Shown here: positions 7,112 to 38,322 of the stretch, in pieces | Numbering within the stretch: position 1 is the stretch's first letter | Layout: every line of letters begins with the position of its first letter | NCBI GenBank assembly: GCA_947039055.1 | Contig: CAMQYB010000001.1 | Location: 1-38,428 of the forward strand | DNA: 38,428 nucleotides | Source: an uncultured Deferribacteraceae bacterium | Lineage (GTDB): Bacteria; Chrysiogenota; Deferribacteres; Deferribacterales; Mucispirillaceae | Reading direction: 5' to 3' | Notes under the pieces: generated by a model | The model's database searches: none | Told to the model about the DNA's origin: nothing | What the model saw: only the letters and a program-made list of their open reading frames with translations | Made by a program: the position numbers and the translations under genes

Positions 7112-10100
7112 ATGAGAATTACATTTAATATGATGTCGATGAAACATAATAGCTCGATAAGTTCATCTTTGGCTAATATGCTTGCAGCTGGTGATAGAGT
7201 TAACGCACAACAAGATCTTTTAAAACCAGAACAGAATGCTTCTGGCTATGTTTCTGCTTATAATGTACAAAGAACAATTGATGAACTTAACCAGTTTAAA
7301 GAAAATGGTGAATCGGCAACTGGTTGGATTTCAAATAGTGAAACAATATTAACAGATGCGTTAGAGAAACTTAAGAAAGTTAAAGCTGATTTTGCAATTG
7401 GTGGTGCGAATGCAACAAATGATGCTGATGCAAGAGCTGCAATGGCAAAAGAAGTTGCAACAATTATGGAAGATCTAATGGGATATGCCAATAGTACTTA
7501 TCTTGGCAGACATATATTTGGTGGGTTTCAAACTGAGACTCCACCTTTTTCTGGTAGTGGAAGTTCTATTTCAAACGTATCATCAAGTATCCTTGGGGCA
7601 GATAGTATCGATAATATACCTGTGTTTTCAGATTTAGGTGAATTAGCCTCTGGAGCTTATAGAACAAAAATAAGCGTTGTTAACGGTATAGCAACTGTGA
7701 GTGTGCTTGATTCTAGTGGTAAACCTGTCGTGCTTGATTCTAATGGATCTGATGAAGCAAATAAAAAAGGAAATGCTACATCTGATACCTTATCATTTAA
7801 ATATGAGCCTGGTAAGGTTGTAAATACAGGACTTGGTTTCTCTATTCAAATGCCTGATAAGGAAATTACCAATGCCGATATAACTGTTGGATTTAATTAT
7901 AAAGCTGGATCAGAAGTTAGTTATGCTGGAGATATGGGTTCTATATTATCACAGATAGGATACGATCAGAATATTGCAAAAAACATACCTGGTAGTGATA
8001 TATTTATGCAATCATTCAAAACATTACTATCTACAAAAGTATTAACATCTAACGGTTCATTAGCTAATCTTGCAACACTATTATCGGAACTTGATGGAAA
8101 CAATTTTGCAACTGGCGATTCTATGAATATCTCAGGAACAGATAGCCATGGACGACCTGTTGGTGCTGCAACAATCGTATCTCCTATTAATCCTACACTA
8201 AATCATACCAATACAACTGATGAAGAGAGAACTTTAAAAGTTGCATACGGTAACAAAATGTATCAAGTTGTTATTCCTAAAGGAGATTATAAATCAGCTG
8301 ATAAATTAGCTGAAGCTGTGCAAGAACAGTTAAAGACTGCTGAATATATCGGATCTGTAAATGTTCCTGCTGATGGATATGATGAATTAAATGATTTCAA
8401 AAACTCAATAGAGCAACAGATAGATAGCGGTTATTTTACTCCAGCAACTGGAGATGAGAAGAAAAAGACAGTTGATCTTTCTAAGGATATATCAGTTACT
8501 GCTGATGGTGATAGATTATCATTTTACACAAGTAAAGCAGGTGATAATGTTCAACTTGCTATATCTGGTTCTGAGGGAAGCGATTTAGGGTTTACAGACT
8601 CTGTAACTGTTGCTGAAGGTAAAGATACTCAATTTGACTTTGGAACAACATATAATAATAACGGTATAGAGAATATTAGCACTGAACACTCTAATATGGA
8701 TTTCTCTGCAGGTGGAAAGTTTGATTTCTTTATAAACGGTAAGCCTGTATCAGTAAATCTTCCTGCACGAGGCCCTGTAACAACTACTGATGTTTCAGCA
8801 ACTACTGTATATGATGGAACAACTGATTTCAACATAACAATAAATGGAAAAAATATTAAAGTCCCTGCTGCAGAACTTAATGGTAAAACAGTTGCTGATC
8901 AAGAAAAAATAATAAATCAAAAATTGATAGATTCAGGATTTGGTGGAAGTAACTCAATAAGTTTAACAGCTCCAGTAGCACCTGCTACAACATATACTGT
9001 TGATCTAAATAGTGCGACTGCTCCAACTAAGAAAGATATAGAGTTCGAACTTCAATCTGCATTAAATTCTGCAGGGTTTACTGGTGATATATCTGCTTCA
9101 TTAAATTCGGTAAATAGTTCTGATCCTAACGATCTTGGTAAGTTTGATCTTTCATTTGCTGTTGTTAATAACAATATTAATGACTCAACTCAGATCAATA
9201 CCGTTTACTTCGATAAGAATGCTGTTCCACCTTATAAAGATATGCAGACGGATATACCAACTATTAAACAAACTCCTGGTCAAAATAATACTACCATGGG
9301 CGACTATATGAAATTCTTGAATAACTTATACGGTGAGACTGCTACAGTTTCATTGGTTGAGGGCAAGATACAAGTCAAAGATAAGCGTAGTGGAGAAAAC
9401 AGTGAATTAACTTTCTTTCAAAACTCAACAGAGTCTGGACTTCAATCTACTACTGATAACGACCTAGTAATAGGTGGAAAATACCGTGGACAAGGTGATG
9501 TTACTTGGGGTATTGATATGACTAACAGTGTAAGTACTGATGGTACTAGAACTGTTCATATATCTATTAAAGATGTTAACGGTATTGAAGTTTATAATCA
9601 AAAAGTTGATAACTATCTGGGTGGAGAGATAACATTACCAAGTGGTGTTACAATAACGCCTAATGAAAACCAGTTTCCAACTCCTCCTGAAACAAGCTTA
9701 ACAACTTCTTTTAACCTAGATCTTATCGATGATACAAAAGCATCTCTTGGAATAATGAAAGTTACTGATAATGGTAGTAATGATAATATGTTTAGAGTAT
9801 TAACAAATTTAGAGAACGCATTGAAATATAACATTGATTCAACTGAAAATGGTATCGGTGCATTTGGAGCATGGGGCAATGCATCGCTTGGATCAACTGC
9901 TACGCCGTCCTTTGATGGAACATATAAAGGAAATTATAACGATAGCTGGAAATATGAAATAATGCAAAACGGTTCTCAAGATGATTTTTATATTCAAAAT
10001 GAGTCTTACTCAACGTCTGGTAAAACTGCTTTTGATCAAAATCTAATTAACGATTTAGGTGGTGAAATATCTTTTGGTGTTAATATGTATGATAATGTTA

Positions 10101-11476
10101 CTGGTAAAAGCTCAACTATAAATCTAGATATAGATCTATCAAAAGCTTTTCCTCCATTAACTGATGCTGCATCAACTAACGCTTATATAGTTAAAGAATT
10201 AAATAATAATCCAGAGTTGAAAAAGCAAGGGATTACCTACGCTTCAGATAGTGATGGAAAAATTGTAATGGAATCTAATAGTGGAACAAAAATAGTTTCA
10301 TTCGCAGAAAATCTTGGTGCATTACCAGCTAACGCAAATAAAAATGTTCTAAGCAATTTCATAATGGGATTTCAACCTTTAGATAATAAACCGTTACCAG
10401 AAACTAGCTATCCATTAACATTAACTGATACAGATTTCTATGTTACAGATATCGGAGATCCTGCTGATCCATCTAAAAAGATTACTTTGCCAGCTCCTGC
10501 TACTTATGCTACTAAAGAAGAACTACTAGATGCAATCAATACAGAGTTAGCTGTCAGTACAGTTGGTAGAGTTGAGGCATCTTTTAGTGAAAAAACTGGT
10601 GCATTAGTGTTCAAGAATGCTGATAATACAGCTACTGAAGTATACGGTAATAATGAGTTAGGAATATCAACTTCTGATACTGGTACTGTAATAGCTGCTA
10701 AAGCTTCTGGAATGCCTAATCCTGCTCTTTCTGAGACAAGTGATGAAGACAGAACATTCACTTTTAACTATATTGATAATCTTGGCGTACAAAGAAGTAA
10801 ATCTATTATGTTAGATAAGAAAGATTATGACTCTCCTACAGCACTAGTTGAAGAGATTAATAGATTAATCGCACTTGACCCTGATCTTGTTGGACTTGAT
10901 GCAAAACTTGATAGCGATGGAAAAAGTAACGATAAAGGGAAAATAGTATTTACAACAGATCCTGCTACAATGAACAGTTTATCGGTAGAAAATGGCTATT
11001 CTGGGATATTAGGTTTTCCTAAAGCTGGAGACCAAACAACTGTACGTGTTACATCAGCAGAAAATGGCAACGTTGTTCAAGAAATTACTCTAGACACAGC
11101 TAACGACTCTACATACGTTGCTGATGGCGTATACATACGTTTTGATAGTGGAAAAATAAATGCTACTGACTTTTTTAATGTAGGCGTAGGAACTGGTATC
11201 AGCGAACAGATCGACTATCTTGATCAAATTGAGAAACAGCTATTAGAAGCTGTAGCAAATGTTGGTGGTAGATTATCAAGAGTTGAATCTGTAACAAATT
11301 TTCACACTACTGTTATCGCATCAAGTGAGACAACTAAATCAACTTATCTTGGATCAACTCCTCAAGATATTGCAGCTGCCATGACTGACCAAGCACTTGC
11401 AACATCAGCCTATAAAATGTCTTTAGAGATAACTAGTAGTATCTTAAAAATATCGTTGTTAGACTTTTTAAGGTAA
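7112..11476 (+). CDS. flgL: Flagellar hook-associated protein 3 FlgL, giant form (1454 aa)
   Basis: The N-terminal flagellin-like domain contains MRITFNMM...ARAAMAKEVATIMEDLMGYANSTYLGRHIFGGFQTETPPF, with the FlgL-type YIFGG..T..P motif. The C-terminal flagellin-like helix reads GGRLSRVESVTNFHTTVIASSETTKSTYLGSTPQDIAAAMTDQALATSAYKMSLEITSSILKISLLDFL. The gene lies directly after flgK. About 1200 aa of T/S/N/D/G-rich sequence separates the two terminal domains. Confidence 0.85.
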   Translation: MRITFNMMSMKHNSSISSSLANMLAAGDRVNAQQDLLKPEQNASGYVSAYNVQRTIDELNQFKENGESATGWISNSETILTDALEKLKKVKADFAIGGANATNDADARAAMAKEVATIMEDLMGYANSTYLGRHIFGGFQTETPPFSGSGSSISNVSSSILGADSIDNIPVFSDLGELASGAYRTKISVVNGIATVSVLDSSGKPVVLDSNGSDEANKKGNATSDTLSFKYEPGKVVNTGLGFSIQMPDKEITNADITVGFNYKAGSEVSYAGDMGSILSQIGYDQNIAKNIPGSDIFMQSFKTLLSTKVLTSNGSLANLATLLSELDGNNFATGDSMNISGTDSHGRPVGAATIVSPINPTLNHTNTTDEERTLKVAYGNKMYQVVIPKGDYKSADKLAEAVQEQLKTAEYIGSVNVPADGYDELNDFKNSIEQQIDSGYFTPATGDEKKKTVDLSKDISVTADGDRLSFYTSKAGDNVQLAISGSEGSDLGFTDSVTVAEGKDTQFDFGTTYNNNGIENISTEHSNMDFSAGGKFDFFINGKPVSVNLPARGPVTTTDVSATTVYDGTTDFNITINGKNIKVPAAELNGKTVADQEKIINQKLIDSGFGGSNSISLTAPVAPATTYTVDLNSATAPTKKDIEFELQSALNSAGFTGDISASLNSVNSSDPNDLGKFDLSFAVVNNNINDSTQINTVYFDKNAVPPYKDMQTDIPTIKQTPGQNNTTMGDYMKFLNNLYGETATVSLVEGKIQVKDKRSGENSELTFFQNSTESGLQSTTDNDLVIGGKYRGQGDVTWGIDMTNSVSTDGTRTVHISIKDVNGIEVYNQKVDNYLGGEITLPSGVTITPNENQFPTPPETSLTTSFNLDLIDDTKASLGIMKVTDNGSNDNMFRVLTNLENALKYNIDSTENGIGAFGAWGNASLGSTATPSFDGTYKGNYNDSWKYEIMQNGSQDDFYIQNESYSTSGKTAFDQNLINDLGGEISFGVNMYDNVTGKSSTINLDIDLSKAFPPLTDAASTNAYIVKELNNNPELKKQGITYASDSDGKIVMESNSGTKIVSFAENLGALPANANKNVLSNFIMGFQPLDNKPLPETSYPLTLTDTDFYVTDIGDPADPSKKITLPAPATYATKEELLDAINTELAVSTVGRVEASFSEKTGALVFKNADNTATEVYGNNELGISTSDTGTVIAAKASGMPNPALSETSDEDRTFTFNYIDNLGVQRSKSIMLDKKDYDSPTALVEEINRLIALDPDLVGLDAKLDSDGKSNDKGKIVFTTDPATMNSLSVENGYSGILGFPKAGDQTTVRVTSAENGNVVQEITLDTANDSTYVADGVYIRFDSGKINATDFFNVGVGTGISEQIDYLDQIEKQLLEAVANVGGRLSRVESVTNFHTTVIASSETTKSTYLGSTPQDIAAAMTDQALATSAYKMSLEITSSILKISLLDFLR

Positions 11477-11540: not shown

Positions 11541-11978
11541 ATGTCTATCCTAAAGATAAACTCTGCAAAGTTGGGAGAGATAGAGTATAACGAGAGTGAT
11601 GTGGTAACTCTTTGTTCCCCGCTCTTAGGTTTTAATGAATTAAATGAATTTCTATTGATTTCTAACGAATCGTCGTATCCATTTATATGGTTTCAGTCGG
11701 TTGAGAATAATGATATCTGTTTTATTCTTGTAGAGGCTACAAAATTTTTTACGGATTATGAACCAACTATTCCTAAACGTGAAATGAAAGTATTAAGCAT
11801 TGAAGATATAGAAAATATGAAAATCTTTTCTATTGTTGTTATTCCTGAAGATCCAACTAAATCTACAGCGAATTTGAGAGCTCCTCTTATCATAAACTTA
11901 GATAAAAAAATTGCTAAACAAATAATACTTGATAATGATGTTTTTCCAATAAAGAGATCTCTCTTTGCTGCTAAGTAG
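11541..11978 (+). CDS. fliW: Flagellar assembly factor FliW (CsrA antagonist)
   Basis: The ORF reads [40 protein letters not shown]...[16 protein letters not shown]...[11 protein letters not shown], all FliW signatures. I prefer the ATG at 11541, with GAGG 5 nt upstream, over the GTG at 11535 used in the track. Confidence 0.9.
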
Positions 11979-11989
11979 GGGTATTGATT

Positions 11990-12223
11990 ATGTTAATACT
12001 ATCAAGAAAAAATAACGAAAGCATAATGATTGGTGATGAAATTGAAATCATCGTTGTTGATGTTGTTGGAAAAACTGTTAAACTAGGTATTAATGCACCT
12101 AGAGATATCTTTGTACATAGGAAAGAGATATACGAAGCAATTAAAAATGAAAATATTCGTGCAATATCTAAAGATAATGTAATATCATTATTTCAGCTAT
12201 TTAACGATAGGAATAAGCCATGA
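11990..12223 (+). CDS. csrA: Carbon storage regulator CsrA
   Basis: The ORF reads [51 protein letters not shown], which is canonical CsrA. The ATG at 11990, with TAGGGG 7 nt upstream, gives the usual MLILxRK start. The track ORF begins at the TTG at 11984. Confidence 0.93.
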
Positions 12224-19402: not shown

Positions 19403-21193
19403 ATGAGCAATAAAGATCTTTTAGATAAAGCATCAAATGCTGGAATTGAAATATTTGAAGCCGAAAACTTGAACGATGAAATATCGTTTGAGTTTAAAGG
19501 TGTGTCGAGATATAAATCTAATAACGCTTTCTACTATCTAAAATTTTCTAGCTTCGAAGCTGTTATGTTAAAAGGTATCTATAAAAACTTCTACCGTGTT
19601 ATTGCTGGTTCTGATGATATACTTGACTCATCTGATTTAAGTCGCATTTGTAAAGTTATAAACACATTAGAGGATATTAACTTAGTCGATATATCTATTG
19701 ATTTCATAATCGCTAATAATAAAGTTTTCATAAAATCTATATCTAAAATTGATGAGTTAAACTCACTTGATTATGATCTTAAAGATCTTTCAATCCTAGA
19801 ACCTTATACTACTGCTGAATGTGAAATTAGTGATCGGTTTTATTTAGACGGTGAAACAATATTATCTAACAGTTTTATAGATGATTATTTTCCTGATACT
19901 ATATCTCCTCTTACTACATCAATTTTAGAACAGAACCCTGATATTTTATATCCGTTATTTATATCAGCTGGACTTAAAACCGTTTCACCCTCTGTTGTAA
20001 CAGTTTTCAATACTCCTTATATAACATTACAAAATTATGAGAAATCTCTAAACTATATAGGTATCAACTCTTATCAATTTAGACTTAATTATCAAACTCC
20101 TCTATATTTACAATCTAAAAGTAAAACATCTAAATTAAAACGATCTTTATTTCCTGATCTAATTGAAGAGATCGGTGAAATTTTAGACGAATTACAACAT
20201 AAATCTAAGTCAACTAATGTTCTAGCTATTAAAGATGATTTCTTATTTAATACTTATATAAAGGTTTTTATTATTCATACTTTTTTAGTAGTTGAACTGC
20301 TATCTGCATTTAATGATCTTTTAGAACTTTCAACTGATAGAAATAAACTATTAAAACTTATATATAAAACTCGTAAAGAAAACCTGTTTAGTAAAACTTG
20401 TGATACAGATGTTTTTACGTTCTTTGATTTTTTATCTAAAAAAATTAAATCAAATAGTAGTATAAATAATTATGAAGCATCTGACTTTGATATATTAATG
20501 AAAGAACTTAAAATTAAACATTCATTGTTTGCTTCTAAAAAGATTAAAACTTTAGTTGAACGCATTCATAAGTTATTAGATATGAGAGATGACTTTACTA
20601 TTACATTATCGAACCTTATGGGATATATGAAAACATCATTAGAGAAATTTTTTAAGAACCATTTGAAAGAAGGGTTTATTAACTCTACTGATGGATTTTA
20701 TTATCTGGATTACGATGATATTACTAAGCTCTTTAACGGTAATTACTACGGCGACCTTTTTAATGCGATAACTTTTAAACGAAATCAGTATTATAGGTTT
20801 TCAACATTATTTAAACCTAAAGAGATATATGTTAAAGATATTTTAACTGTAAATGAAACAAATAAATATATTTCTAACGCAATATTAAAAAATAAAATTA
20901 TAGATGTACTATCTTTAAACGATAAAGATAGTAGTGGTGTTATTACAACCGATCTAAATTTAGATAGTTATAAAGGTATGATTATACATTTCTCTAAAGT
21001 ATCAGTATTTGATTTGAACAAATATAAAGATGCTGAAGGTTTTGTGTTTGACTCTATACCTCTATACTCTCCTATAGTTGAGTTTGCATTATTAAACGAT
21101 ATACCTATCTTTTCTGGACTTAGATATGCCTCTCGTATTTTAGATGGTAAAGAAACAGTAATCAAATCTAACAAACTTAAGATATTAGATTAA
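19403..21193 (+). CDS. Hypothetical 596-aa protein; the C-terminal ~90 aa weakly resemble a PEP-utilising-enzyme mobile (swivel) domain lacking the phospho-His
   Basis: This long clean ORF starts 6 nt after the purC stop. The C-terminus KGMIIHFSKVSVFDLNKYKDAEGFVFDSIPLYSPIVEFALLNDIPIFSGLRYASRILDGKETVI follows the pattern G.ILV....P.......A.GIVTD.GG..SH.AIVARELGIP.V.G......L.DG..V. However, it has PLYSP where GGxxSH would be. The resemblance was judged by eye only. Confidence 0.55.
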   Translation: MSNKDLLDKASNAGIEIFEAENLNDEISFEFKGVSRYKSNNAFYYLKFSSFEAVMLKGIYKNFYRVIAGSDDILDSSDLSRICKVINTLEDINLVDISIDFIIANNKVFIKSISKIDELNSLDYDLKDLSILEPYTTAECEISDRFYLDGETILSNSFIDDYFPDTISPLTTSILEQNPDILYPLFISAGLKTVSPSVVTVFNTPYITLQNYEKSLNYIGINSYQFRLNYQTPLYLQSKSKTSKLKRSLFPDLIEEIGEILDELQHKSKSTNVLAIKDDFLFNTYIKVFIIHTFLVVELLSAFNDLLELSTDRNKLLKLIYKTRKENLFSKTCDTDVFTFFDFLSKKIKSNSSINNYEASDFDILMKELKIKHSLFASKKIKTLVERIHKLLDMRDDFTITLSNLMGYMKTSLEKFFKNHLKEGFINSTDGFYYLDYDDITKLFNGNYYGDLFNAITFKRNQYYRFSTLFKPKEIYVKDILTVNETNKYISNAILKNKIIDVLSLNDKDSSGVITTDLNLDSYKGMIIHFSKVSVFDLNKYKDAEGFVFDSIPLYSPIVEFALLNDIPIFSGLRYASRILDGKETVIKSNKLKILD

Positions 21194-21205: not shown

Positions 21206-22156
21206 GTGCTATTAAAACATTTATTAAAATTTTTATCGCTGTTACTGTTCTTAACAGTGCTTGCTCCTGCATATGCTGAGAGATATCCATCGCCATTATA
21301 TTATCCGTATCAAGATAATCAGATAGATTATAGATATATTAATTCAGATAACTATGATGCTGCTAAATTTGATATCTCTGGATCAAACCAGTTAGGTAAC
21401 TCAAATTTTTCGTACCAGCTATCTAATTTAACATCTATAACTGAGAGCGACTCAAGCTTAACAAGTGTTGGAGTTGGTTACTCTCATACAGTCGGTAATC
21501 ATTGGTTCGGTGCAAGTGTTGCCTCATCATCTAATGAACCTTTTACACTTTTAAACCTTATAGATTTTGAAGGGTTTTATGCATATAAATTAATTGAAAG
21601 CAAAAAACCTGAAATGAAATATGAAGATGGTTCTAGTAGAACTGGATACCATAGACTATATCTAGGGATATTTTATTCAACATACTCTCCGTTTGGCGAA
21701 AAGTTTCCTCTTCCTATGATAAGATATGAATATAATGATCCTCGTGTTACATTTATTGCAGGGTATCCTCTAAACTATCTTAAATTAAAATTCTCAAGAT
21801 ACCAAGGGATAGAAATTAATTATCAACCTGTGTTAGATCTTACAATAGGATATCTTTTAACTCCTAACGATAGCAATACTTTTGCATTTGAATTTCAGAT
21901 TGAACATGAAAGATATTTATTAACTAATATAGTAAATGACGAATACCTTGATAGACGTAAATACTTTAGCGAACTGTACTGGGTTAGACTTAAATACTCT
22001 GTAAGTATTAAAAACTTTATCCAAGTTTCACCTTACTTTCAACTGCTTCTATCTGGAAAACATTATGTCGGAAAAACATTTTATGATACAACCGGTAGCA
22101 CAAACCATACAGGGTTCGGTTACTCATTTGGAACAACAATAACAGTTATGTTCTAA
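21206..22156 (+). CDS. Putative outer-membrane beta-barrel protein
   Basis: The ORF has a GTG start with GGAG 6 nt upstream and a signal peptide (MLLKHLLKFLSLLLFLTVLAPAYA). The sequence shows alternating aromatic and polar residues, is Y/G/S/N-rich, and ends in the OMP-like C-terminus GFGYSFGTTITVMF. Confidence 0.6.
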   Translation: MLLKHLLKFLSLLLFLTVLAPAYAERYPSPLYYPYQDNQIDYRYINSDNYDAAKFDISGSNQLGNSNFSYQLSNLTSITESDSSLTSVGVGYSHTVGNHWFGASVASSSNEPFTLLNLIDFEGFYAYKLIESKKPEMKYEDGSSRTGYHRLYLGIFYSTYSPFGEKFPLPMIRYEYNDPRVTFIAGYPLNYLKLKFSRYQGIEINYQPVLDLTIGYLLTPNDSNTFAFEFQIEHERYLLTNIVNDEYLDRRKYFSELYWVRLKYSVSIKNFIQVSPYFQLLLSGKHYVGKTFYDTTGSTNHTGFGYSFGTTITVMF

Positions 22157-22321: not shown

Positions 22322-23671
22322 ATGAAAGACAATAGTACATGGTTAAATATTCTTGATATTCTCAAGAACGAACTTACTGAAGCAGAAATTAATCAATGGC
22401 TTTCACCGCTTAACATTAAAACATTGAACGGTAATCCCGTTGTTTTAACAGCTCCGAATAAATTTTTTAAAACATGGGTAGAGGATAATTATCTTACATT
22501 AATTAAAAAAACCTTTAGAGAAAATTTAGGATTAAAAACCGATATCGACATAGTTATATCTATCGAGAATAAAGACGATCAAACTGTTCGTACAGTACCT
22601 GTTGAAAGAAGTAATGTTACTACAACCGATGCAACGTTTGATCTACCATTAAATAAAAGATTTACATTTGATAATTTCGTTGTAGGCACATCTAACCGTT
22701 ATGCACACGCTGCTTGTTCATCACTCATAAGTGGTAAAACTACAGCTAACCCATTATATATATACGGCGATGTTGGACTTGGTAAAACTCACCTAATGCA
22801 CGCTGTTGGTAATGAGTTTAAAGAACGATTTCCTAAATATAGAATACTTTATACAACTGGTGAGTCGTTCGTTAATGATTTTGTTACATCTATGCGTCTT
22901 AGCAAACTTGATAGTTTTAAACAACGATACCTTAACATTGATCTTTTTCTATGCGATGATGTACAATTCATAGCTGGTAAAAGCAGAACGATGGAAGAGT
23001 TCTTTTTTACATTTAGTCAGCTTTATGCAACACAGAAACAGATCGTTCTTACATCTAACACATCTCCTAACAATATCAAAGAGCTTGACCCTAGATTATC
23101 ATCAAGATTTACATCGGGATTAATGGTTGACGTATCAACACCATCTGTTGAAGAGAAAGAAGCTATCATAAAAAAATATATTGAAATAGAAGATCTAACA
23201 ACTCAAAGGTTCTCAGATGATATAATACGATATCTTGCAAACAATCTTAAAAGCGATAGCACTCGTGAAATCTTAGGTGCAACACTTAGAATATTTACAC
23301 TTGCATCAATAGATAACGAAGATATTACTATCCAATTTGCTGAAAAACATTTAAAAGATTTTCTAATGAAAAGAGATAAAACTTTATCACCCGACAGTAT
23401 TCTTGAACTTACTGCAAAATATTATCAGTTAAAAGTTAGCGATTTAAAATCTAAAAACAGATCTAAAACGATAGCTCTTGCAAGAAGTATCGCTATGTAT
23501 CTTATCCGTGAAAAATTATCTTTATCATACACAGAGATCTCATCTATCTTTAGCAGAGACCATTCTACAGCACTTCACGCAGTAAATAAAATTACTGATG
23601 AATTATTATCAAATCATGAGCTTGAAGGAACGATAAATGTCCTTTTAGATAAGATGAAACTTATCCATTAA
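22322..23671 (+). CDS. dnaA: Chromosomal replication initiator DnaA
   Basis: The 449-aa ORF has the Walker A motif IYGDVGLGKTHLMHA, Walker B LFLCDDVQF, sensor region LTSN, and the domain IV helix-turn-helix ARSIAMYLIREKLSLSYTEISSIFSRDHSTALHAVNKI. Confidence 0.97.
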   Translation: MKDNSTWLNILDILKNELTEAEINQWLSPLNIKTLNGNPVVLTAPNKFFKTWVEDNYLTLIKKTFRENLGLKTDIDIVISIENKDDQTVRTVPVERSNVTTTDATFDLPLNKRFTFDNFVVGTSNRYAHAACSSLISGKTTANPLYIYGDVGLGKTHLMHAVGNEFKERFPKYRILYTTGESFVNDFVTSMRLSKLDSFKQRYLNIDLFLCDDVQFIAGKSRTMEEFFFTFSQLYATQKQIVLTSNTSPNNIKELDPRLSSRFTSGLMVDVSTPSVEEKEAIIKKYIEIEDLTTQRFSDDIIRYLANNLKSDSTREILGATLRIFTLASIDNEDITIQFAEKHLKDFLMKRDKTLSPDSILELTAKYYQLKVSDLKSKNRSKTIALARSIAMYLIREKLSLSYTEISSIFSRDHSTALHAVNKITDELLSNHELEGTINVLLDKMKLIH

Positions 23672-23992
23672 GTTTTCCACAATAAAAGTTGTTAATTACG
23701 ATGTAGTTAGTTGAGTTTGAGCTGTTATTAATATATTATTGAAGAAGTTATCCACATTTGATAGATTGTATAATAAGAAAATTTATTAAATAATATTTAT
23801 ATAAATGTTTTATAGAGTTTAGACGATGATATATTTAAGTAGTGTTAGAAGTTGTTACTATGTTTGAGTATTTTTTGAATGTTGTTATGAGTTATAAAAG
23901 TTATTGTAATATAAGATGTAAATTTACTTGTACAATGTTATAAGTTGTCCTATAATAACAACAAAGTATAAATATAAATAGAAATTTATAGC
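23672..23992. other. Candidate oriC (dnaA-dnaN intergenic region with DnaA boxes and an AT-only tract)
   Basis: A perfect TTATCCACA lies at 23748-23756 and TTTTCCACA (8/9) at 23673-23681. TTATCCATT (7/9) lies at 23661-23669, at the end of dnaA. A 29-nt pure A/T run spans 23778-23806. The spacer is strongly G>C and T-rich. Confidence 0.5.
23748..23756 (+). promoter_or_regulatory. Consensus DnaA box TTATCCACA
   Basis: This is an exact 9/9 match to the E. coli/B. subtilis-type DnaA box. It lies 77 nt downstream of the dnaA stop. Confidence 0.65.
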
Positions 23993-32187: not shown

Positions 32188-32258
32188 AATTAAAGATATT
32201 AGATTGTAAGTGTTATAAAGATTTTAAGTTGAATTTTGAGAGAGAGAATATACAGTAT

Positions 32259-33842
32259 ATGAGTAAAGAAAATCAGTTGAATAATATTAATAAAGAAACT
32301 GTTGCTAATAGTTATAATAGCGAAACTATCGGCAATAGTGATAGTTGTGTTAATAGTGATAGTAATGTTAATAAAGCAATTATCGGCAATAGTGATAATC
32401 GAGTTAACAGTGACAGTAATATCAATAAAGCAACTATCGGCAATAGTGATAGTTGTGTTAATAGTGACAGTAATATCAATAAAGAAACGATCGTTGCACC
32501 GATAACAGTTGTGCTAACTTCTCCTGTCATAGTAGTGCGTATTTCAGGCGTAGAGGCGATTAAGACGTTTACTCTTATCCAAGATAGAAAAGGTGTTTCA
32601 ATCAGCTGTATAGAGCCAAATAAGGTGTATTTTGCTAAGTTTATATCATTATATGATGGGTTTTGTGATGATGTTTTAGTAACATATTTTAAAGCACCTT
32701 ATTCATATACAGGCGAAGATGTAGTTGAGATATCATTTCATGGTAATCCGATCCTTATCTCATCAGCCTTAAGATCGTTTTATGATCTAGGGTTTAGAGA
32801 TGCAAGAAATGGCGAGTTCACTATGAGAGCATTCTTAAATGATAAGATATCATTAAATGAAGCTGAAGCTATACAAGAGTTTATCGCATCGGATTCAGAT
32901 ATATCATTACGATATGCTTACGAACAGATGAATGGATCTGTTGGTACTCTGTTTGATACTTTTAAATCTGAACTACTTAACTGTAAAGCTATACTTGAAG
33001 CTGATATTGATTTTGCTGAAGATACAGATATTTCTAGTATTTATGCAAGACTGCTAACAATAGTTAATCCGTTATTAGCTCAGATAGAAGAGCTTTTGAT
33101 ATCTTATAAATCATTACGATCTATAAGTAATGATGTTAATTTAGTTATTGTTGGTAAACCGAATGTAGGCAAATCATCTCTACTTAATAAACTCTTAGAT
33201 AGCAATAGAGCGATAGTTTCATCGGTTGCAGGGACAACAAGAGACTTTATTAGTGAAAGGTTTTTGATATCTGGAATACCAGTAACAGTAACTGATACAG
33301 CAGGGATCAGAGAATCAACTGATGAAATAGAAAGTATAGGTATATCTAAATCATTAGAGGTAGTTCATAAAGCAGATATTGTTTTAATTTTATTTGATAT
33401 AAGTGATGGAGATATGTCTATTCTTGATGATAAAAACCTAGATACGATTATAAATTCTAGTAATAGTAGTAAGGTTATTAAGGTTGGTAATAAGAGTGAT
33501 CTGGATCATAGTACAGATCTTTCTATGTTTGATATAGTTATATCATCTAAGACAGGCGATGGAGTTGATAAGTTATTAGCATCAATTAAGGATATAGTTT
33601 CAAGTAGTAGAGATATCAAGCCTAGCTCAATAGGTATAGTTTCCGAAAGACACGCTATGTTATTAGATGTTGTTAAGAGTTCGTTGCAGTCTGTAGTTAA
33701 GAATATTAGCAATAACTTTCCAGAGGATATGATTATATTTGATCTTAATGAATCTATCAGAAAGATAGAAGAGATTACTGGCGAGAAATATACAGAGGAT
33801 ATTCTTTCTATTATTTTTAATAAGTTTTGTATCGGTAAGTAA
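32259..33842 (+). CDS. mnmE: tRNA modification GTPase MnmE (TrmE) with a repeat-containing N-terminal extension
   Basis: The G domain has GKPNVGKSSLLN, DTAGIRES and NKSD, and the C-terminus ends in the FCIGK tetrapeptide. The recognisable MnmE core starts near ETIVAPITVV...VVRISG, at about nt 32484. The nearest in-frame ATG is 32259 and the TTG used by the track is at 32229. The start is therefore uncertain, and about 75-85 extra residues precede the core. Confidence 0.88.
   Translation: MSKENQLNNINKETVANSYNSETIGNSDSCVNSDSNVNKAIIGNSDNRVNSDSNINKATIGNSDSCVNSDSNINKETIVAPITVVLTSPVIVVRISGVEAIKTFTLIQDRKGVSISCIEPNKVYFAKFISLYDGFCDDVLVTYFKAPYSYTGEDVVEISFHGNPILISSALRSFYDLGFRDARNGEFTMRAFLNDKISLNEAEAIQEFIASDSDISLRYAYEQMNGSVGTLFDTFKSELLNCKAILEADIDFAEDTDISSIYARLLTIVNPLLAQIEELLISYKSLRSISNDVNLVIVGKPNVGKSSLLNKLLDSNRAIVSSVAGTTRDFISERFLISGIPVTVTDTAGIRESTDEIESIGISKSLEVVHKADIVLILFDISDGDMSILDDKNLDTIINSSNSSKVIKVGNKSDLDHSTDLSMFDIVISSKTGDGVDKLLASIKDIVSSSRDIKPSSIGIVSERHAMLLDVVKSSLQSVVKNISNNFPEDMIIFDLNESIRKIEEITGEKYTEDILSIIFNKFCIGK
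32328..32489 (+). repeat. In-frame 54-bp tandem repeat x3 inside the 5' end of mnmE
   Basis: The units are 32328-32381, 32382-32435 and 32436-32489, about 88-90% identical. They encode IGNSDSCVNSDSNVNKAI, IGNSDNRVNSDSNINKAT and IGNSDSCVNSDSNINKET. Unit 3 matches unit 1 in its first ~32 nt and unit 2 in the following ~17 nt, so it is a chimera. Confidence 0.85.
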
Positions 33843-33873
33843 GTTTTGTTGTGAACCATTTATTGAGGTTTAA

Positions 33874-33891
33874 ATGTTTCACGTGAAACAT
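33874..33891. other. parS: parS site 1 (ParB/Spo0J-binding centromere-like palindrome)
   Basis: The site is ATGTTTCACGTGAAACAT. Its core TGTTTCACGTGAAACA is identical to the chromosomal parS consensus. The 20-bp palindrome AATGTTTCACGTGAAACATT spans 33873-33892. Confidence 0.8.
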
Positions 33892-33975
33892 TATTATTAT
33901 GTTGATGTGTTAAAGTGATATACAGTTTGGTGTGGTTAAATTATGTCTATTGTTATTAATTGTGAGGGTCGTGAA

Positions 33976-33993
33976 ATGTTTCACGTGAAACAT
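33976..33993. other. parS: parS site 2
   Basis: This is a perfect ATGTTTCACGTGAAACAT. The 20-bp palindrome spans 33975-33994. Confidence 0.8.
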
Positions 33994-34080
33994 TGCTTTA
34001 GTTCATAGGCATAAAAGAAAGGTTTCAGTTTAGGCAGTATTTAAAATTAATAGATAATAAGGTCTTATTATATTGTGGTT

Positions 34081-34098
34081 ATGTTTCACGTGAAACAT
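34081..34098. other. parS: parS site 3
   Basis: This is a perfect ATGTTTCACGTGAAACAT. Confidence 0.8.
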
Positions 34099-34191
34099 TG
34101 TTAAGTTAGTTGTGTTAATGTATTGAGTGATAGAGAAACGCTTAAGTAATAATAGTTTTCCTGTCTGCCTTATGATTACTTTAATATGATA

Positions 34192-34209
34192 ACGTTTCAC
34201 GTGAAACAT
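34192..34209. other. parS: parS site 4 (one mismatch)
   Basis: The site is ACGTTTCACGTGAAACAT. Its single difference falls at the outermost position of the 16-bp core. Confidence 0.7.
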
Positions 34210-34241
34210 AATCAGTAAGTTATTGGCTTGAAGAAGATATA

Positions 34242-34259
34242 ATGTTTCACGTGAAACAT
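34242..34259. other. parS: parS site 5
   Basis: This is a perfect ATGTTTCACGTGAAACAT. The 20-bp palindrome spans 34241-34260, about 90 nt upstream of the first mnmG ATG. Confidence 0.8.
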
Positions 34260-34350
34260 TATATGTATAGTTCGTATGTATATATGGTTTGTATGTGTTG
34301 TGTGTAGTTTAATATGTTATATGTAGTTTGTTTAAATAGAGGTCTCTAAA

Positions 34351-36180
34351 ATGTTTAAGAAGTATGATCTAATAGTGATAGGTGCAGGACATGCAGGTTG
34401 TGAAGCAGCATTAGCATCAGCACGTATGGGTGCGAGTACCTTGCTACTAACTATATCTATTGAGAATGTGGCGTTAATGCCGTGTAATCCAGCGATAGGT
34501 GGCATAGGTAAAGGTAATTTAGTTAAAGATATGGACGCCTTAGGTGGCGAAATGGGATTAAATATAGATGCAACTGGTATACAGTTTAGAATATTAAACA
34601 GAAGTAAAGGTGTAGCTGTGAGAGCAACAAGAGCTCAAGCAGATAAGTATCTTTATAAAGATAGAATGCTTACAACTATATTTGATACACCAAACCTAGA
34701 TTTGAAACAAGGGATTGTTACAGATATTAATATTAATAATAACGAAGTAGAGTCAGTAAGTGTTGCATCAGGTGAACAGTATTTCTGTAAGAAGATAGTT
34801 ATTACAGCTGGAACATTTATTGATGGTCATATATATATCGGTAGTATGAGAATGTCTGCAGGAAGAATGTATGAACCAGCAAGCGTTGCATTAGGCGAGT
34901 CATTAACTAAGTTAGGTCTAAACCATTTCAAGATGAAAACAGATACGCCTGCAAGGATTAGGTTTGATTCTATAGATATCAGTGGACTAGAAGTTCTATC
35001 TTCTGATAGTGGAGATATAACATTTTCTGGAGAGGGTATTAAGAATAATCTAAAGAATATAGATTGTTATCTAACATATACCAATGATGAAACTTGTAGA
35101 ATAGTTGCTGACAATATAAAAGCCTCACAATTATATAGCGGAGAGATTGCTGTAAAAGGCCCAAGATATTGTCCATCTATTGAAGATAAGATCAAGAACT
35201 TTCCAGAGAAAACATCACATAATATAGTTATCGAGCCTGAAAGTTTAGATATGTTTGAGTGTCATATAAATGGTATGTCAACATCTCTTCCGTATGATAT
35301 CCAAGTTGCTGCTTATAGATCTATTAAAGGTTTAGAGAATGCTGTGTTTACAAGACCAGCTTATGCGATAGAGTATAATGTTTACGATCCGAAAGATTTA
35401 CATTACTCTTATGAATCTAAGAAAGTAAAAGGTTTATACCTTGCAGGACAATTAAATGGAACATCAGGATATGAAGAGGCAGCTGTGCAAGGTTTCATGG
35501 CAGGGGTTAATGCCGTTCTGTCTATTGATAATAAAGAACCTTTAATCTTAGGTAGAGATGAAAGTTATATCGGTGTGTTAGGCGATGATATAATAAGTAA
35601 AGGTGTTGATGAGCCTTACAGAATGTTTACATCAAGAGGCGAGTATAGACTTTTATTAAGGGAAGATAGAGCAGAGGCTAGATTGTTACAGTATGGTTAT
35701 GAAAAGTTAGGATTAATAAGAAAAGAAAGATATGATAGGTTTTTAAATGATAGAGAGTTAATAGATTTAGAGATAAGAAGACTTATTAAGTTAAAGGATA
35801 AAGATAAAAATATATCGTATCATGACCTATTAAAAAGACCTGAAGTGTTATATAGAGATATGATTAAAGAGAGTGGTATCGGTGCTGGTAATCTTTCAGA
35901 GAAGTTGATAGATCAGTTAGAGGTAGAGATTAAGTATAAAGGTTATATAGATAAAGAGCAGAAAGAGGTTGAGAAAGCAAGTATCTATGATGATATATTA
36001 GTACCTGATTCTATTAGTTATAAATCAATCCCAGGGCTTAGGTTAGAGTATGCAGAGAAGATTGCATTATTGAAACCTAAAACTTTGAAAGAGATTAGAA
36101 GTATTCCAGGGATTTCTCCATCTGCAATATCGGTTATTGCAATAGAGATATCTAAGATAGTTAAGACAGAAAACATTTAA
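34351..36180 (+). CDS. mnmG: tRNA uridine 5-carboxymethylaminomethyl modification enzyme MnmG (GidA), copy 1
   Basis: The 609-aa ORF reads YDLIVIGAGHAGCEAALASARMG (FAD motif), MPCNPAIGGIGKG, GPRYCPSIEDK, RPAYAIEY, GQLNGTSGYEEAAVQGFMAG and EPYRMFTSRGEYRLLLREDRAE. A full C-terminal helical domain is present (...IPGISPSAISVIAIEI). Confidence 0.93.
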   Translation: MFKKYDLIVIGAGHAGCEAALASARMGASTLLLTISIENVALMPCNPAIGGIGKGNLVKDMDALGGEMGLNIDATGIQFRILNRSKGVAVRATRAQADKYLYKDRMLTTIFDTPNLDLKQGIVTDININNNEVESVSVASGEQYFCKKIVITAGTFIDGHIYIGSMRMSAGRMYEPASVALGESLTKLGLNHFKMKTDTPARIRFDSIDISGLEVLSSDSGDITFSGEGIKNNLKNIDCYLTYTNDETCRIVADNIKASQLYSGEIAVKGPRYCPSIEDKIKNFPEKTSHNIVIEPESLDMFECHINGMSTSLPYDIQVAAYRSIKGLENAVFTRPAYAIEYNVYDPKDLHYSYESKKVKGLYLAGQLNGTSGYEEAAVQGFMAGVNAVLSIDNKEPLILGRDESYIGVLGDDIISKGVDEPYRMFTSRGEYRLLLREDRAEARLLQYGYEKLGLIRKERYDRFLNDRELIDLEIRRLIKLKDKDKNISYHDLLKRPEVLYRDMIKESGIGAGNLSEKLIDQLEVEIKYKGYIDKEQKEVEKASIYDDILVPDSISYKSIPGLRLEYAEKIALLKPKTLKEIRSIPGISPSAISVIAIEISKIVKTENI

Positions 36181-36453
36181 AAGATTATTAGTAGATGATT
36201 TAATTGGCTGATGACTTTTGCTACATGCTTTGGTTAGTTGTTGTTTTCTATTTTAATTAACTAATGATTTTTACTATATGACTTGATCGGCTATAATTGG
36301 TTAAGTCAGTAAGTATTAGAAATAGTATCAATTAAGGATTAATATTGTCTCATTATGTTTTAAGTATAGTAATCGTATAGTAATAGATTTAAGTAAAAGA
36401 TAATTGTAATAAATTAGTTAAATAGTGATAGGTAAATATTAAGGAATTATGAA

Positions 36454-38322
36454 ATGGTAAAGAAAGATATATATGATGTTATAGTGGTTGGTGCAGGTCA
36501 TGCAGGTTGTGAAGCAGCATTGGTATCAGCTAGACGTGGGTTTAGCACGATGCTTATAACTATATCGATCGATAAGATGGCGTATATGAGCTGTAACCCT
36601 GCGATAGGCGGATTAGCTAAAGGTTCATTAGTTAAGGATCTGGACGCTTTAGGCGGCGAAATGGGTAGGAATATAGACGCAACCTTTATACAGTTTCAAT
36701 TATTAAACCAAAGTAAAGGTGTTGCAGCAAGAAGTTCAAGAGCTCAAGCAGATAAACGTAAATATTCAGAGCGAATGAAGAAGAGTATGTTCAGCACAGA
36801 TAATCTAACAGTTAAGCAAGCGATTGTTTCTGATATATTGGTTAATGATAAAGTTGTATACGGTGTAAGAGCTTTATCAGGTGAAGAGTATCATGCAAGA
36901 AAGGTTGTGGTTACGACTGGTACATTTTTGAATGGAAAGATATTTGTTGGTGATAAGAGTTATGAAGGTGGAAGGATGAACGATATATCATCAACACATT
37001 TAGTAAGCTCATTAACATCATTAGGTTTTGATCCTATAAGGTTAAAGACAGGAACACCAGCTAGGGTTGATAAGCGTAGTATAGATTTTGATAAAGTACA
37101 AGCGTATAAGAAAGAAAGTATAAGAAGAGGTTTTTCATTTGAGACAGATGTTTTAGGTGATGATCAGATAGATTGTTTTATAACATATACGTCAGAGACA
37201 ACTCATAAGGTTGTTAGAGATAACACATATAGGTCGCTCTATTTTAATAATAAAGATAAAGCGTTAGGTCCTAGATACTGTCCATCGATGGAAGATAAAG
37301 TATCGAAATTTCCAGATAGAGAACGTCATTTAATTGTACTAGAGGAAGAAGGAATAGGTAGTAATGAGATATATATTAATGGGTTCTCATCATCACTACC
37401 GATAGATGCACAGCTTGCAGCGTATAGAACGATTATAGGGTTAGAGCGAGCAGAGTTTATACGTCCAGCTTATGCGATAGAGTATATAGCGTTTCAGCCG
37501 ACAGTATTGAAGAAGAGTTATGAGACGAAGTTGATAGATGGATTATATTTTGCAGGACAGATTAATGGAACATCAGGATATGAGGAAGCGGCAGTACAAG
37601 GTTTCATGGCTGCGGTTAATGCTACATTGTCGATAGAAGGTAAAGAGGCGTTTATACTTAATAGGGATGAAAGTTATATAGGTGTAATGACAGATGATTT
37701 AACGACTATCGGTGTTGATGAGCCATACCGAATATTTTCATCAAGAGCAGAGCATCGCATGAGATTAAGAGAGGATAATGCAGAGACTAGGTTACTAAAA
37801 TATGGTAAAGATTTAGGGTTAATAACAGATAAAAGATATAGTAGGTTTTTGGATGATTGTGTTGTAGTGAGTAATACAATTGAGAAGTTAAAGGATACAA
37901 AAATAAGGATCTCAGATAAGAATATAGTTGATATAATATCTAAATATAATATAATACTTAGTGAGAGTGTAACAGCGTATGATTTCTTAAAACGTCCTGA
38001 GGCAAGCTATGCTATTTTGGAAGAGATGAACTTAGTTGATCCATTAGGTGCGAAGCTAAAAGAACAGGTTTGGATAGAGATATTTTATGAAGGATACATT
38101 AAGAAAGAAGAGCAAGAAATTGCTAAATCTAATAAGTTAGAGTTTGTTCGAATTCCACAGAGTATAGATTATGGTTCAGTTTCAGGATTAAGGTTAGAAC
38201 AGGTCGAGAAGCTAAAGAGGATTACTCCTGAAAATTTAGGACAAGCGTTACGTATTCCTGGGATGACACATAATGCAATATCGATGTTAGAGATCGCTAT
38301 AGAGAAGATTAAAAAAGTATAA
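36454..38322 (+). CDS. mnmG: MnmG (GidA), copy 2 (diverged full-length paralogue)
   Basis: The 622-aa ORF reads YDVIVVGAGHAGCEAALVSARRG, MSCNPAIGGLAKG, LKTGTPARVD, GPRYCPSMEDK, RPAYAIEY, GQINGTSGYEEAAVQGFMAA and EPYRIFSSRAEHRMRLREDNAE. The C-terminal domain reads ...IPGMTHNAISMLEIAI. Confidence 0.93.
   Translation: MVKKDIYDVIVVGAGHAGCEAALVSARRGFSTMLITISIDKMAYMSCNPAIGGLAKGSLVKDLDALGGEMGRNIDATFIQFQLLNQSKGVAARSSRAQADKRKYSERMKKSMFSTDNLTVKQAIVSDILVNDKVVYGVRALSGEEYHARKVVVTTGTFLNGKIFVGDKSYEGGRMNDISSTHLVSSLTSLGFDPIRLKTGTPARVDKRSIDFDKVQAYKKESIRRGFSFETDVLGDDQIDCFITYTSETTHKVVRDNTYRSLYFNNKDKALGPRYCPSMEDKVSKFPDRERHLIVLEEEGIGSNEIYINGFSSSLPIDAQLAAYRTIIGLERAEFIRPAYAIEYIAFQPTVLKKSYETKLIDGLYFAGQINGTSGYEEAAVQGFMAAVNATLSIEGKEAFILNRDESYIGVMTDDLTTIGVDEPYRIFSSRAEHRMRLREDNAETRLLKYGKDLGLITDKRYSRFLDDCVVVSNTIEKLKDTKIRISDKNIVDIISKYNIILSESVTAYDFLKRPEASYAILEEMNLVDPLGAKLKEQVWIEIFYEGYIKKEEQEIAKSNKLEFVRIPQSIDYGSVSGLRLEQVEKLKRITPENLGQALRIPGMTHNAISMLEIAIEKIKKV

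Follow-up and report, generated by a model that had tools for sequence, protein, structure and literature searches.

The spacer between mnmE and mnmG in the origin region of an uncultured bacterium carries five closely packed palindromes. We interpret these, with a probability of about 85%, as the chromosomal centromere of a member of the Deferribacterota, i.e. a cluster of parS sites that would act as a candidate ParB-loading locus. This interpretation is favored by the match of the palindromes to the parS consensus, their origin-proximal context, the conserved position of such sites across the phylum, the selection apparent on the sites themselves and the rapid change in their copy number.

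By extension from established ParABS biology, a ParB dimer would bind each of the 16-bp sites, and the bound ParB would then turn into closed, CTP-dependent clamps that slide out over the flanking DNA. The predicted outcome is a single partition complex, located some 10 kb away from oriC, that is segregated by ParA, and the same complex probably loads SMC as well. Five adjacent loading sites might increase the rate or flux of loading and also provide redundancy.

The palindrome array and its origin-region setting

The window, by which we mean the entire 38,428-bp stretch of DNA that was analyzed (GC content 31%), contains TGTTTCACGTGAAACA without mismatch at 33875, 33977, 34082 and 34243, and the one-mismatch variant CGTTTCACGTGAAACA at 34193. 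The original prediction had located the corresponding 18-mers at 33874, 33976, 34081, 34192 and 34242 and had equated the core of the palindrome with the chromosomal parS consensus. The positions are right on re-checking and the core is an exact match: relative to TGTTNCACGTGAAACA, four of the sites are perfect and the fifth has a single outer mismatch. The palindromic symmetry extends to 18–20 bp around each site, with AATGTTTCACGTGAAACATT as the longest form. The rest of the window has no further match to TGTTTCACGTGAAACA with up to three mismatches. Shuffled versions of the window gave a mean of 0.29 matches and reached five in 0 of 100 shuffles, and the number of perfect 16-mers expected in the window from base composition is 1.2e-5. 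Together the five sites span 386 bp (33875-34258). The features of the region relevant to the discussion below are:

22322..23671, plus strand: dnaA, by which the window is recognized as the origin region of the chromosome
23672..23992, unstranded: dnaA-dnaN spacer; DnaA boxes at 23748 (perfect) and 23673 (1 mismatch)
32229..33842, plus strand: mnmE (tRNA modification GTPase), an ORF of 537 aa with a TTG start
33843..34350, unstranded: mnmE-mnmG spacer containing the array, 508 bp
33875..33890, unstranded: parS-1, perfect 16-bp consensus, with the palindrome extending to AATGTTTCACGTGAAACATT (33873-33892); 32 bp past the mnmE stop codon
33977..33992, unstranded: parS-2, perfect consensus
34082..34097, unstranded: parS-3, perfect consensus
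34193..34208, unstranded: parS-4, CGTTTCACGTGAAACA, with its single mismatch at the outermost position
34243..34258, unstranded: parS-5, perfect consensus; the mnmG-1 start codon lies 92 bp downstream
34351..36180, plus strand: mnmG copy 1, directly 3' of the array
36355..36372, unstranded: possible decayed parS, ATGTTTTAAGTATAGTAA, a weak candidate with 11/18 matches, upstream of mnmG-2
36454..38322, plus strand: mnmG copy 2, with 52.6% amino acid identity to copy 1

The sites have about 20 bp in common, and the DNA between them is unique, indicating that the five-site array is not a tandem repeat. Consistent with this, Tandem Repeats Finder detected no array across the five sites, and there is no head-to-tail unit that includes the inter-site DNA. 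The 3' flank of parS-5 is itself a conserved sequence, matching that which follows the sister species' final site (see below). Re-measurement reproduces the centre-to-centre spacings of 102, 105, 111 and 50 bp given originally. These had been described as lying near whole numbers of helical turns. With a helical pitch of 10.5 bp they correspond to 9.71, 10.0, 10.57 and 4.76 turns, with phase offsets of -103, 0, -154 and -86 degrees. As just one of the four spacings is in phase, the proposed helical phasing is unsupported.

The gene order in the window is flagellar genes, purC, two unknown ORFs, dnaA, dnaN, recF, gyrB, gyrA, folD, mnmE, the five parS sites, mnmG-1 and mnmG-2, so that the array shares its contig with the origin-region genes dnaA, dnaN, recF, gyrB and gyrA. 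The dnaA-dnaN spacer is likely to be oriC or a part of it, and its perfect DnaA box and the array's centre are some 10.3 kb apart. In E. coli oriC is situated next to gidA. A location of oriC between mnmE and mnmG was considered for the window and rejected, as that spacer has one 1-mismatch DnaA box, versus the perfect and 1-mismatch boxes of the dnaA-dnaN spacer. The linkage of dnaA and dnaN is not universal in the phylum: in Denitrovibrio sp. (L135, 1-1880) the gene upstream of dnaN is not dnaA but an opposite-strand gene with an hfq domain. The ORFs directly upstream of dnaA in the window (19403-21193, 596 aa; 21206-22156, 316 aa) show no match to Pfam or NCBIfam entries, even at E<=1.

The start of mnmE probably lies downstream of 32229. 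The match to the family begins at residue 85, making the N-terminus of the ORF about 85 residues longer than the family model, and gene callers assign lengths of 405-527 aa to mnmE on sister contigs.

With metagenome contigs from the same species, the neighborhood can be followed upstream to tgt, yajC, secD and others, and downstream to rsmG, a lipoprotein gene, an SLT/LysM transglycosylase gene, two heptosyltransferase genes and hflX. Named homologs of MnmG with ~53-55% identity come from Deferribacterales, Denitrovibrio and Deferribacteraceae, and the gene order from dnaA to rsmG is common to the window and these named genomes. On sequence grounds the organism is thus placed as an uncultured member of the Deferribacterota; the presence of FlgI and of LPS heptosyltransferases would fit a flagellated diderm. 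Among the flagellar genes, a 1454-aa ORF (7112-11476) occupies the flgK-flgL position, has an N-terminal flagellin domain as its sole domain match, and retains the same length in the sister contigs L127-L130. For a hook-associated or flagellin-like protein this would be an uncommonly large size.

Conservation, selection and copy number of parS in Deferribacterota

A parS site is present upstream of mnmG in 8/8 related Deferribacterota loci, with the following arrangements:

L134 (Deferribacteraceae bacterium CP063375.1, MnmG 54% identical): one perfect site, which fills the 21-bp gap from the mnmE stop codon to the mnmG ribosome-binding site
L135 (Denitrovibrio sp.): a lone perfect site within a spacer of 121 bp
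L132 (GCA_054287265.1): two mnmG copies, each with a perfect site 11 bp before it
L131 (MnmG1 70% identical): four 1-mismatch sites, one before mnmG-1 and three before mnmG-2
L133: a 1-mismatch site upstream of mnmG and a perfect site ~0.5 kb downstream of mnmG
L136/L137 (sister species, MnmG1 94% identical): three perfect sites, all within a spacer of 213 bp

Five metagenome assemblies of the window's species, obtained independently, carry the five-site version without any difference. The copy number of parS thus changes rapidly among relatives, taking the values 1, 2, 3, 4 and 5. When the window is aligned to the sister species, three sites pair up and are identical at 60/60 positions, whereas the alignable inter-site DNA is identical at 64/109 positions (59%), with 58 more columns gapped. 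For comparison, identity at third codon positions between the two species is 76% in mnmG-1, 75% in mnmG-2 and 84% in gyrA. The difference between sites and inter-site DNA indicates that purifying selection acts on the palindromes in comparison with the DNA around them, and conservation beyond the neutral level is seen both in the recurrence of the site at all eight loci and in its sequence.

The five-site array appears to be a lineage-specific expansion of one ancestral parS situated just upstream of mnmG. Tandem pairs of mnmG occur in the window and in three of the related loci (L131, L132 and L136), and a single mnmG is found in L133, L134 and L135. In L132 the sequences upstream of the two mnmG copies are similar, which, together with the parS at each copy, suggests that parS and mnmG were apparently duplicated there as one unit. 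The window's species has no intact parS upstream of mnmG-2, and the suggestion that ATGTTTTAAGTATAGTAA is a decayed parS comes solely from the comparison with L132 and its intact site before each copy. In L131 the three parS-like sites between the mnmG copies (11726-12151) lie within tandem direct repeats of ~189 bp, pointing to growth of that array by segmental duplication; all three have a central CpG-to-TpG/CpA change (CACATG or CATGTG).

The proximity of these sites to mnmG bears on two readings in which the array influences gene expression. In the first, the array would have a dual role, serving as a high-flux ParB-loading platform and also making the expression of mnmG-1 dependent on ParB occupancy, with mnmG-2, whose upstream site is possibly decayed, free of such control. 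We regard this as unlikely; if true, it would link tRNA modification, through one of its enzymes, to the cycle of chromosome segregation. Marginally less probable is the second, that the array is mainly a transcriptional operator at which ParB or another palindrome-binding protein, acting especially at parS-5, controls mnmG-1 in a paralog-specific manner, mnmG-2 being devoid of an array. In most relatives a parS is found 11-92 bp from the mnmG start codon, and in the sister species the distance from the last site to the ATG is just 35 bp, which means that any mnmG promoter there must overlap or precede that site. A precedent is P. aeruginosa, in which ParB at the intergenic sites parS3 and parS4 represses downstream genes (PMC7022226). 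However, the 21-bp gap that contains parS in L134 is too small for a promoter; what is conserved is the position of the site and not an overlap with a promoter, implying that regulation of mnmG cannot be the conserved role of parS. Furthermore, promoter-like matches in the window's spacer show no excess (6 versus 4.6 in shuffles), the same sites adjoin rsmG, parA or gyrA in unrelated taxa, and a single operator would suffice for regulation, five full-length parS sites being rather what a centromere needs. By analogy with P. aeruginosa, a side effect of the array on the transcription of mnmG-1 is possible.

ParA, ParB and the persistence of the sites

As had been noted from the sequence at the outset, there is no parA or parB in the window, and searches with Pfam, NCBIfam and tblastn confirm this. 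The same searches found neither gene in ~58 kb, comprising the window, 10 kb upstream (L127-L130) and 10 kb downstream (L001), nor ParA or ParB in the loci of the relatives L131-L134. The tblastn probes were the B. subtilis Soj and Spo0J proteins, used as probes alone; they readily recovered ParA and ParB at loci of other phyla, showing that the probes work. The original prediction had further described the arrangement as the usual mnmG-rsmG-parA-parB order interrupted by a second mnmG. Contigs of the same species do place rsmG next after mnmG-2, in keeping with that order, but the description as a whole is not supported, as parAB follows rsmG in 0/8 related Deferribacterota loci, including those with a single mnmG.

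The usual position of parAB is occupied in these loci by a gene of 463-536 aa that overlaps the 3' end of rsmG (L001 12622-14145; L131 14633-16210; L132 14721-16331; L134 12404-13822; L135 12455-13846; L136 14468-16021). It has no Pfam match, and in L001, L131, L132 and L136 it is followed by the SLT/LysM transglycosylase gene. A lipoprotein-type signal peptide (…SGC…) is present in the four copies that were translated (L001, L131, L132 and L134). We considered this gene as a substitute for ParB and rejected it on account of the lipoprotein signal peptide and the lack of a ParB-like domain; its product probably functions in the cell envelope.

In Mucispirillum schaedleri, the one species in culture from the related gut family Mucispirillaceae, adjacent genes are annotated as a 'chromosome partitioning protein' and a 'ParB-like partition protein' (AYGZv1_130016/17), flanked by pepA (130015) and tpiA/secG (130019/20) (PMC5285517 supplementary file 6). 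This location between pepA and tpiA is consistent with the lack of parAB beside rsmG across the phylum, and means that parAB need not adjoin either rsmG or the parS cluster. We infer that the organism of the window encodes a cognate ParB, with the annotation in M. schaedleri as indirect support.

These data also bear on the proposal that the sites are relics, ParB having been lost in the lineage and the palindromes persisting by chance or binding a different protein. About a quarter of bacterial species are devoid of ParABS (PMC7333895), and the failure to find ParB in ~58 kb around the array would be in line with such a loss. In contrast, the complete identity of the sites between species, set against just 59% for the inter-site DNA, the growth in site number from 1 to 3 to 5 with no decay, and the ParB annotated in the related gut family all speak against this proposal. 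Because the sites are under selection and have multiplied, we consider a ParB-less relic very improbable. Least probable of all is that we are dealing with a dispersed repeat of the REP or MITE type, or with an RNA element such as a terminator or attenuator hairpin unrelated to ParB: an RNA hairpin of 8-12 bp could form at each site (-6.9 and -12.4 kcal/mol) and mnmE and mnmG have no terminator between them, so the region may be transcribed, but the hairpins have no T-tract, zero terminators are called in the spacer, the top Rfam score of 25.9 bits falls below the gathering score of 90, the conserved part is just the 16-20 bp that match parS with all 16 positions fitting the consensus, and there are no extra copies, nor any further parS, in the ~58 kb examined (up to three mismatches in the window and up to two in the ~20 kb of flanks from sister contigs).

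Density of the array and comparison with known parS clusters

The centromere reading places the array among parS loci that differ widely in number and arrangement. Between 1 and about 20-24 parS sites occur per chromosome, the upper figure in reviews being 20-23, and their clustering is one of the questions regarded as open (PMC7333895). In M. xanthus, 24 parS lie upstream of parAB (PMC3778016), and in C. crescentus at least 5 sites are clustered ~8 kb from ori (PMC5815017). Five sites within one spacer had been predicted to be unusually dense. We scanned reference genomes, one per species, for two perfect parS 75-105 bp apart; the resulting prevalence figures are lower bounds, biased to the centre spacing of 91-121 bp that the pattern requires, and the window's species is not among the matches listed. 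At least 120 species from many phyla have such a pair. Among the matches listed, at least 13 other species possess, when one mismatch per site is allowed, five or more sites within 400 bp, the densest being L052 and L031 with 8 each, L050 with 7, and L121, L038 and L071 with 6 each; L052 has 11 sites in all, in ~1.1 kb. With these species and the published clusters, including the 24 sites of M. xanthus (PMC3778016), the claim of unusual density does not hold: five sites in 386 bp are at the dense end of the range and not exceptional. Dense single-spacer parS arrays are common in uncultured bacteria. Among the matches listed, 10/13 dense arrays lie in one spacer beside gyrA, dnaA, mnmG, rsmG or parA (those of L071, L038 and L055 between mnmG, rsmG and parA), and comparable arrays elsewhere also adjoin parB.

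With the Spo0J/parS type of B. subtilis (TGTTNCACGTGAAACA) the window shares the 16-bp palindrome, its origin-proximal placing and its presence in multiple copies per chromosome. It differs in that its five sites are confined to 386 bp of one spacer, rather than being spread over kilobases to hundreds of kilobases, and in the lack of an adjacent parAB. The clusters of M. xanthus and C. crescentus resemble that of the window in having several parS at one locus ~8-30 kb from the origin with a single partition complex; however, they adjoin parAB and span kilobases across several genes, whereas the window has a single intergenic array remote from parAB. The window also resembles L052, L031, L071, L038 and L055, in which a perfect consensus parS recurs 5-11 times in a few hundred bp of an origin-region spacer. 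Several closely spaced ParB-binding palindromes also constitute one centromere in plasmid arrays such as F sopC. Arrays of that type have plasmid-specific sequences and a plasmid-encoded ParB, in contrast to the window's chromosomal consensus beside dnaA and gyrBA. The binding site of Noc (NBS) is a related palindrome, ATTTCCCGGGAAAT; we ruled out this identity, as the central bases of the window's sites are CACGTG and not CCCGGG.

In a broader form of the unlikely dual-role reading considered above, the fast turnover of parS copies at one unchanging position (1, 3 and 5 copies in related species) would amount to a tunable centromere strength. The Deferribacterota offer a clean natural series at the same centromere locus, with 1, 2, 3, 4 and 5 copies of parS, that could be used to approach the open question of why the number of parS varies and why the sites cluster (PMC7333895).

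Two of the dense arrays show a regular tandem organization: a 55-bp unit repeated 9.4 times downstream of gyrA in an uncultured Bacilli MAG (L052, 5382-5896), and a 46-bp unit repeated 7.4 times upstream of parA in a member of the Lachnospiraceae (L031, 1013-1353), both built on a perfect chromosomal parS. Here the inter-site DNA is also repeated and regular, whereas that of the window is unique and irregularly spaced. These two arrays combine a plasmid-centromere-like architecture with the chromosomal consensus and an origin-region context.
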